A DNA stretch of 14,683 nt from assembly GCA_038247995.1 (NCBI GenBank), contig JBBRUG010000135.1:1-14683 (forward strand), written 5' to 3'. Positions 1 to 327 of the stretch are shown piece by piece (within the stretch, counting starts at the first letter, position 1; each line of letters opens with the position of its first letter). Source of the DNA: Chloroflexales bacterium. GTDB taxonomy: Bacteria; Chloroflexota; Chloroflexia; Chloroflexales; Chloroflexaceae. Both the position numbers and the translations under genes were made by a program. The notes beneath the pieces are model-generated. The model saw nothing but the letters and a program-made list of their open reading frames with translations, was not told the origin of the DNA and did not search any database.

Positions 1-327
1 ATGCCAGGGTAGACCAGAATAGCAATCTTCAACAGTAAGCTCCTAGGCTCCCGTAGTGTCGATGCACAATCGTGCGGCAAGGGCTTCAGTTCACAGGCCG
101 CACCCCTCGCGTCGAGCGCGGTCATGCCGGGGTAGACGAGAATGGCGATCTTCAACAGTAGGCTCCCGTAGTGTCGATGCAAAATCGTGCGGCAAGGGCT
201 TCAGTTCACAGGCCGCACCCCTCGCGTCGAGCGCGGTCATGCCAGGGTAGACCAGAATAGCAATCTTCAACAGTAAGCTCCTAGGCTCCCGTAGTGTCAA
301 TGCAAAATCGTGCGGCAAGGGCTTCAG
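1..327. repeat. Tandem repeat with a ~118-bp period. Copy 1 is 1-123, copy 2 is 124-238 (it carries an 8-bp deletion and 4 substitutions), copy 3 is 239-~327 and is truncated where unique sequence begins. The array probably continues upstream of the window.
   Basis: The three copies were aligned by eye. Copies 1 and 3 are near-identical; copy 2 differs. Each unit contains short stems (GTGCGGC...GCCGCAC, CGAT..ATCG). The ORFs on either strand (56..250 +, 91..405 -) have no SD and the same Arg-rich low-complexity translation on both strands, so I read the region as non-coding. Confidence 0.85.

Follow-up and report, generated by a model that had tools for sequence, protein, structure and literature searches.

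The contig opens with a tandem array of units a little over 100 nt long, and the question that it raises is whether this is a genetic element in its own right or a structure made out of the genes beside it. The window analysed here is the complete 14,683-bp contig. An initial annotation had described 2.7 copies of a unit running off the window edge, and the array itself is confirmed: Tandem Repeats Finder reports it at 1-327 with a period of 115, 2.7 copies, 87% matches and a score of 490, and the motif ATGCC[AG]GGGTAGAC at positions 1, 124 and 239 marks the starts of head-to-tail copies, giving periods of 123 nt and then 115 nt. The longest exact repeat within it is of 61 nt (68-128 and 183-243) and the next of 60 nt (1-60 and 239-298), both of which are far beyond chance. 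There are thus at least two head-to-tail copies of high identity with no unique sequence between them, which is what is expected of a minisatellite. The array does run off the edge, but that edge is the end of the contig, and when the array is aligned with L005, a relative that has one copy, its left boundary falls at about 345 rather than 327. Plus-strand copies 1, 2 and 3 are referred to below by their order on the minus strand, as copies III, II and I respectively.

The copies are not equally alike. Copies 1 and 3 differ at two of 89 positions, and copy 2 departs from them by four substitutions in what proves to be a coding part, one substitution upstream of it and an 8-nt deletion, so that the near-identity of the outer copies, the divergence of the middle one and the two-unit higher-order periodicity noted in the initial annotation are all borne out by the copy comparison. 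The two periods differ because copies I and III carry an 8-nt insertion, TAGGAGCT, that copy II does not have; the insertion gives rise to AGGAG, a Shine-Dalgarno sequence 7 nt ahead of a TTG codon, where copy II has GGGAG at the same distance. We also considered whether the 74-nt spacer at 328-401 is a fourth copy in degenerate form and rejected this, the local alignment score being reached by 530 of 1000 shuffled sequences; only the last 18 nt or so of that spacer align with the edge of the unit, through the comparison with L005.

Sequence comparison identifies the array as a tandem duplication, read on the opposite strand, of the distal part of the spacer between a hydrolase gene and a DJ-1/PfpI gene together with the 5' coding end of the latter. 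Each minus-strand unit has AGGAG (copies I and III) or GGGAG (copy II), then 7 nt, then a TTG start followed by coding sequence that reads TTG AAG ATT GCT ATT CTG GTC TAC CCT GGC ATG ACC GCG CTC GAC GCG. The encoded peptide, (M/L)KIAILVYPGMTALDA, corresponds to the first 16 residues of the DJ-1/PfpI protein and includes the N-terminal beta-strand motif of this subfamily (PF01965), MKIAILVYPGMTALDA. In all complete copies of the unit it is identical at 16 of 16 positions to the N-termini of P0123, P0124 and the L005 gene product, and it matches residues 2-17 of the L001 protein, which begins with one additional Met. When the unit peptide was used as a phmmer query against the PDB the sole match was the ThiJ/PfpI protein 3ewn_A (QIAMLVYPGMTVMDLVGPHCM), with an E value of 0.047, and the read-through peptide, compared with 5.8 billion proteins, gave one marginal match, in which the C-terminal half of the fragment opens a DJ-1-like N-terminus (MKIAILTFDGMTALDAVGP). 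Pfam returned no match for the repeat peptides of 22-59 residues, which are fragments too short for Pfam scoring. The view that the unit contains no credible ORF therefore does not hold, since the minus strand has a Shine-Dalgarno sequence, a start codon and 16 residues identical to those of syntenic orthologues. About 40% of each unit is in this way coding sequence of the neighbouring gene; the spacer part comprises the 3' half of a hairpin that follows the hydrolase gene, a short T-run, a TTGACA or TCGACA hexamer and the Shine-Dalgarno sequence.

The context of the locus supports the same assignment. The array lies immediately downstream, in the sense of transcription, of an alpha/beta-hydrolase gene, which is itself preceded by a padR-family regulator gene (Table 1); the true padR start, MEYVILGLL at 1749, was set by comparison with the L002 PadR and its relatives. 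Named homologues belong to metagenome-assembled genomes of Chloroflexaceae, Roseiflexaceae and Chloroflexales; hydrolase identity to the nearest relatives is 71-73%, with L005 the closest at about 73%. In L001, L006 and L007 the padR, hydrolase and DJ-1_PfpI genes are consecutive and co-oriented, the DJ-1 product has 236-239 residues, and the hydrolase stop and DJ-1 start overlap. In L005 a spacer of 122 nt separates the hydrolase from a DJ-1 start that reads ATG AAA ATT GCA ATT CTC GTG TAC CCC GGC ATG ACC GCT CTC GAC GCA ATT GGC CCG TAC GAG. Across L001 and L005-L008, all Chloroflexales-like metagenomic contigs, the DJ-1/PfpI genes share the first 16 residues with the units, with 83-94% DNA identity over 35-49 nt, and stand in the same operon position and on the same strand, downstream of padR and the hydrolase. 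By blastn the unit matches L005 at 94% over 35 nt (E 4e-10) and L006-L008 at 89% over 46 nt (E 2e-9), in each case at the DJ-1 start, as well as L002-L004 at 86% and L001 at 83%; DJ-1 gene starts are its only DNA matches in L001-L008. The relatives have a single copy that continues to IGPYEV, with no tandem repeat at the corresponding position, whereas the fragment in the window is triplicated and, in copies I and II, breaks off after codon 16.

Searches beyond these loci returned little. There are no further unit copies in the 14.7-kb window or in the eight related loci, and the 22-mer common to the three copies, AATCGTGCGGCAAGGGCTTCAG, has no exact match in genome_contigs, metagenome_contigs or viral_contigs. 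A hydrolase-based search for related loci gave no confirmed relatives in genome_contigs or metagenome_contigs, exact-protein look-ups with the hydrolase, PadR, the 1292-residue protein described below and P0002 found none on record, and none of the 120 best matches to the L001 protein is a DJ-1 protein attributable to the source assembly. A dispersed satellite or protein-binding module, as the initial annotation had proposed, is thus not seen in the window, the eight loci or the three collections, and the outcome is essentially the unique local duplication without other copies that it had named as the finding that would undo its reading. It had likewise allowed for a protein gene in a dismissed frame; there is indeed a real protein gene, but the units carry the N-terminal part of a gene that lies downstream on the minus strand, not a C-terminal repeat.

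Table 1. Features of the array and its operon, with positions numbered from the first base of the contig
Feature	Coordinates	Strand	Basis and remarks
Copy I, about 124 nt	222..345	-	Distal hydrolase-DJ-1 spacer, Shine-Dalgarno sequence, TTG and 16 DJ-1 codons; alignment A1 with L005 and minus-strand read-out
Diverged left edge of copy I	328-345	-	Alignment A1 with L005
Copy II, 115 nt	107..221	-	Without the 8-nt TAGGAGCT duplication; four synonymous differences; nearest to the orthologues
Copy III	1..106	-	Contig end cuts the DJ-1 fragment after codon 11; last 60 nt an exact match to 239-298
8-nt insertion TAGGAGCT	276..283; again at 38-45 in copy III	-	Alignment A1; missing from copy II
DJ-1/PfpI 5' fragment, copy I	222..270	-	TTG at 270-268; KIAILVYPGMTALDA plus 1 nt; 16/16 identity with P0123/P0124
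DJ-1/PfpI 5' fragment, copy II	107..155	-	TTG at 155-153; open in frame to copy III
DJ-1/PfpI 5' fragment, copy III	1..32	-	TTG at 32-30; ends with the contig
104-codon ORF (probably not a real gene)	91..405	-	GTG start shares a GTGA with the hydrolase stop; same frame as the DJ-1 fragment of copy I; stop at 93-91
Hairpin after the hydrolase stop	302..350	-	-26.9 kcal/mol, z -2.45; loop CUGAAG, then GAUUUUG
Alpha/beta-hydrolase gene	402..1214	-	Pfam Abhydrolase_1/6, E about 1e-19; 100% identical to P0002; immediately upstream of the array
padR-family regulator gene	1189..1749	-	Pfam PadR and Vir_act_alpha_C; first gene of the padR-hydrolase-DJ-1 operon

The ends of the unit can be placed by the points at which homology to the relatives stops. 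Inspection of 26 family members shows ALDA, or a close variant of it, leading into IGPYEV, with a single-residue variant of the latter in four; in the window ALDA leads into RGAACE (AGG GGT GCG GCC TGT GAA) and on into spacer sequence, CTGAAGCCCTTGCCGCACG. The homology breakpoint thus falls after codon 16, where RGAACE replaces IGPYEV. Since the IGPYEV continuation and the catalytic Cys region are absent from copies I and II, which run through RGAACE into spacer, these units are fragments of a gene and not genes. At the other end, alignment A1 pairs the start of the internal unit, GGGGTGCGGCC (GGGGTGC--GGCC), with spacer and not with DJ-1, its spacer counterparts being GGGTTGCTGCGGCGG in the window and GGGGGGCGC-GGCAG in L005, and a block CTGAAG...GCCGCACG is common to the window spacer, the internal copies and L005. 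By this alignment the unit extends from the interior of the spacer, at about 345, to 1 nt into codon 17 of DJ-1; its 115-124 nt are the distal 66-75 nt of the spacer plus 49 nt covering the first 16 codons of DJ-1/PfpI. Both presumed breakpoints are flanked by GCG(N)GGG, as ATGGCG/TGGG in the spacer and GACGCG/A..GG in the gene (breakpoints at the slashes), which is compatible with a first duplication via microhomology. Neither the precise breakpoint nor the microhomology can be taken as certain, because at the 17-nt left edge of the unit, GGGGTGCGGCCTGTGAA, likeness to the spacer is confined to the first 11 nt.

We consider it probable that the array is a minisatellite of 2.9 or more copies (a lower bound, as the array meets the contig end), produced by a tandem segmental duplication specific to this locus and built from the distal spacer and the first 16 DJ-1/PfpI codons. 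The first duplication would have arisen by illegitimate recombination or slippage between the short GCG(N)GGG homologies in the spacer and at codons 16-17, after which the copies would have diverged, among other changes by the 8-nt duplication of the Shine-Dalgarno sequence. The near-identity of copies I and III would be accounted for by a later re-duplication of a two-unit block (123 + 115 nt) through unequal homologous recombination. Copy II looks the more ancestral, because it is closer to the orthologues and lacks the 8-nt Shine-Dalgarno duplication. As with tandem duplications of a 5' end in general, the last copy would be expected to lead into an intact DJ-1 gene, here beyond the contig end.

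Such a duplication would present the DJ-1 translation-initiation region three times, with different consequences for each start. Translation from the copy-I TTG enters copy II, where the 8-nt deletion shifts it out of frame, and stops at 93-91, so that this start would yield a dead-end peptide of 70 residues. The frame of the copy-II TTG is open across the 123-nt spacing into copy III, 123 nt being 41 codons, and if copy III heads an intact gene a start there would give DJ-1 with one extra 41-residue N-terminal repeat; a start at copy III would give the native DJ-1 protein. The 104-codon ORF that begins at the hydrolase stop is itself shifted out of frame by the 115-nt copy II, and its end lies 59 nt before the next start. 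Its GTGA overlap at 402-405 has the -4 geometry also seen in the ATGA overlap of L006 and L007, and the copy-I DJ-1 fragment begins 45 codons downstream of that GTG; the overlap may be a relic of ancestral translational coupling between hydrolase and DJ-1, or a coincidence.

The differences between the unit types deserve separate comment. Over the 48 coding nt, copy II differs from copies I and III as ATT/ATC, GCT/GCC, CTG/CTC and CCT/CCC, all of them synonymous third-position changes, for which p = 0.0044 under random substitution. This is unexpected for redundant, non-functional partial copies, and possible causes are gene conversion with a functional copy, recombination between strain alleles, a strain-mosaic assembly, or real translation of the copies. 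Substitution density does not differ significantly between the coding and upstream parts of the unit (Fisher p 0.36).

The initial annotation had emphasized the internal structure of the unit, with several short stems, and this does not stand up to comparison with shuffled sequence. Folds of the whole unit on both strands have z values of -0.19 to +1.59 against dinucleotide shuffles, no better than the shuffled sequences themselves. Comparison of the folds shows instead that the short stems are the remnant of an intercistronic hairpin cut by the duplication: the left breakpoint of the unit falls in the 5' arm of the hairpin at 302-350, and the internal copies keep a weaker 7-bp outer stem (-18.3 kcal/mol, z -0.88). 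The L005 counterpart of the hairpin (1283-1335; -26.9, z -1.91) has the same CUGAAG loop and different stem bases. That a hairpin after the hydrolase stop is conserved in two genomes at 73% protein identity, with stem bases changed, suggests selection on an intercistronic structure, for instance a terminator, an attenuator or an mRNA-stabilizing element; a T-run follows it in the window version alone and not in L005. The promoter and terminator scan called no site within the array, the TTGACA...TACTGT pair that can be picked out by eye having a spacing outside the criteria of the tool. A REP- or MITE-type element was rejected, the sole stem being the 7-bp remnant of the local hairpin and dispersed copies being absent. 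A CRISPR array was rejected as well, in agreement with the initial annotation: the regular spacing of the repeats near a contig end is CRISPR-like, but the whole 115-123-nt period repeats with no unique spacers, and the Pfam scan found no cas genes in the window.

Several other accounts of the array have to be set against a locus-specific duplication. Its copy number and A-B-A order could come from the assembler, with at least one junction real and strain alleles threaded serially by a walk around a loop in the de Bruijn graph. The array stands at the very end of a whole metagenome-derived contig, its terminal 60 nt are an exact match to 239-298 and a 61-nt exact repeat lies within it, which together are a classic sign of assembly stopping in a repeat, and the four synonymous differences between the unit types look exactly like strain alleles of a functional gene. 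We nevertheless think such a mosaic unlikely, since both unit types reach the same junction, GACGCGA/GGGGTGCGG, within 22 nt of a type-specific SNP, from which we infer that junction-bearing copies of both types must exist in the reads, and since loop walks of three rounds without read support are rare. The proposal of a small RNA gene duplicated in tandem, or of a protein-binding module in repeated copies, draws on the short stems that can be drawn in each unit and on the 7-bp GTGCGGC/GCCGCAC pair present in every copy, but that pair is the hairpin remnant noted above, and the coding share of the unit demonstrably belongs to the neighbouring gene. A structured small RNA is further contradicted by the unit folds and by Rfam, where nothing reached a gathering score or an E value below 0.2 and the best match was a human lncRNA model (16.9 bits against a gathering score of 80, E 0.23); no tRNA or tmRNA genes were found. 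With no palindromic operator-like motif and no dispersed copies to mark a binding module, this proposal is highly improbable in either form.

It is also conceivable that the array is a functional expression device, an intercistronic minisatellite of variable copy number, comparable to a mycobacterial interspersed repetitive unit (MIRU) or a contingency locus, whose repeated promoter-like, Shine-Dalgarno and start modules and frame-switching 8-nt indel would tune or switch DJ-1 translation or add 41-residue N-terminal repeats to the protein. The array does lie between two genes of one operon, and the 123-nt unit is stop-free in the frame of the DJ-1 gene; the ORF that opens at the hydrolase stop continues into copy I without a change of frame, every coding difference between the copies is synonymous, and published accounts of MIRUs place them between cistrons, with ORFs coupled to the flanking genes (PMC3184786, PMC12548453). 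Against this, the locus is a single one among the window, the related loci and the three collections, the unit is built from the 5' end of the DJ-1 gene itself with no inserted element, copy II breaks the frame, the L005 spacer lies out of frame with the hydrolase stop, the promoter scan called no site in the array, and the relatives function with one copy or have lost the DJ-1 gene; we regard the idea as quite improbable. Very improbable, too, is the related proposal of a MIRU-like minisatellite kept by selection as a set of translatable start modules, with the 8-nt indel as a phase-variable switch for a stress or detoxification gene; if true, the indel would toggle between in-frame read-through, placing 41-residue repeats on DJ-1/PfpI, and premature termination. 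Returning to the locus-specific duplication, it is most likely that the array has no dedicated function and is a neutral or mildly expression-altering structural variant.

The array can be compared with described repeat classes. The general class is that of bacterial VNTRs, or minisatellites, here one in which a segment spanning a gene start has been duplicated in tandem, and copy-number polymorphism is in practice the defining property of VNTRs. The array resembles them in its copies of about 100 nt, arranged head to tail and 88-98% identical, its higher-order two-unit pattern, its likely origin in slippage or unequal crossing-over and the short-read assembly broken within it, and differs in that it is known here from one sequence of the locus. 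The closest named analogue is the MIRU, although the dispersal and independent origin that define MIRUs were not found here. In published descriptions MIRUs are units of 40-100 bp at about 40-50 loci per genome that resemble inserted mobile sequences (Supply et al., 1997, via PMC3184786 and PMC12548453). The likeness lies in tandem units that are intercistronic within an operon, a length that preserves the ORF and a GTGA overlap with the upstream stop, and the difference in a unit of 115-124 nt at one locus only, made of the operon's own spacer and the first 16 codons of a gene, with one copy that breaks the frame. No MIRU-like dispersal was seen in the contig, L001-L008 or, for the shared 22-mer, the three collections.

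Elsewhere in the window there are further repeats of other kinds. Two microsatellites, (GGTGTCC)x8 at 1845-1901 and (TCCGTGGT)x13 at 1921-2027, lie just upstream of a minus-strand promoter-like site at 1802-1775 (TTGACA, 16 nt, TACTAT) and the padR start at 1749, and by an in-frame TTEPRNHG-type stretch they make the padR ORF 282 instead of 186 codons long; L002-L004 have a different repeat upstream of padR, of 23 nt in three copies. Non-triplet arrays are also found at 3498-3582, (CAGGCGG)x12, and at 3683-3817, (TTCAGTGG/TTCCGTGG)x17, and the latter 8-nt array resembles that at 1921-2027 (repeat family D1, 61-82% identity). These related arrays bracket a 464-codon plus-strand ORF at 2095-3489 with a weak Pfam match to MVP_shoulder (E 1e-5), which is missing from the DHquinase-padR interval of L002-L004 and may represent a gene inserted here with related microsatellites on either side. 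Two long minus-strand ORFs, at 4817-10030 (1737 residues) and 10329-14207 (1292 residues), have beta-helix/NosD, NPCBM_assoc, FixG_C and Ig-like domains, and contain internal DNA repeats 327-336 nt apart (families D3, D6 and D8) that correspond to domains of about 110 residues; judging from these domains their products are probably surface or secreted proteins.

A variant DJ-1 locus also occurs in a sister lineage. At 4787-5247 of L002, and likewise in L003 and L004, from three JGI samples in all, the DJ-1/PfpI gene that follows the hydrolase is a pseudogene, with a frameshift near its start (GTGAAGATTGTCATTCTCGTTATACCCCGGAATGACAGCC) and about 97 internal codons gone, including the TSVC(T/S)GALIL Cys region; in L002 it is called as a 142-residue protein without a Pfam match. 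Because this lineage has a frameshifted and internally deleted DJ-1 gene, the padR-hydrolase-DJ-1 locus appears to be under relaxed constraint.

In summary, the array carries a caution for annotation, in that a non-coding-looking tandem array at a contig edge can be a duplicated gene start on the opposite strand, and that the copy number of a tandem array in a metagenome assembly is unreliable. For the organisms themselves it points to structural instability at the padR-hydrolase-DJ-1 operon, with a frameshifted and internally deleted DJ-1 gene in one relative and a triplicated 5' end here; the wider interest would be modest, and would arise only if the array varies in copy number and modulates DJ-1 expression.
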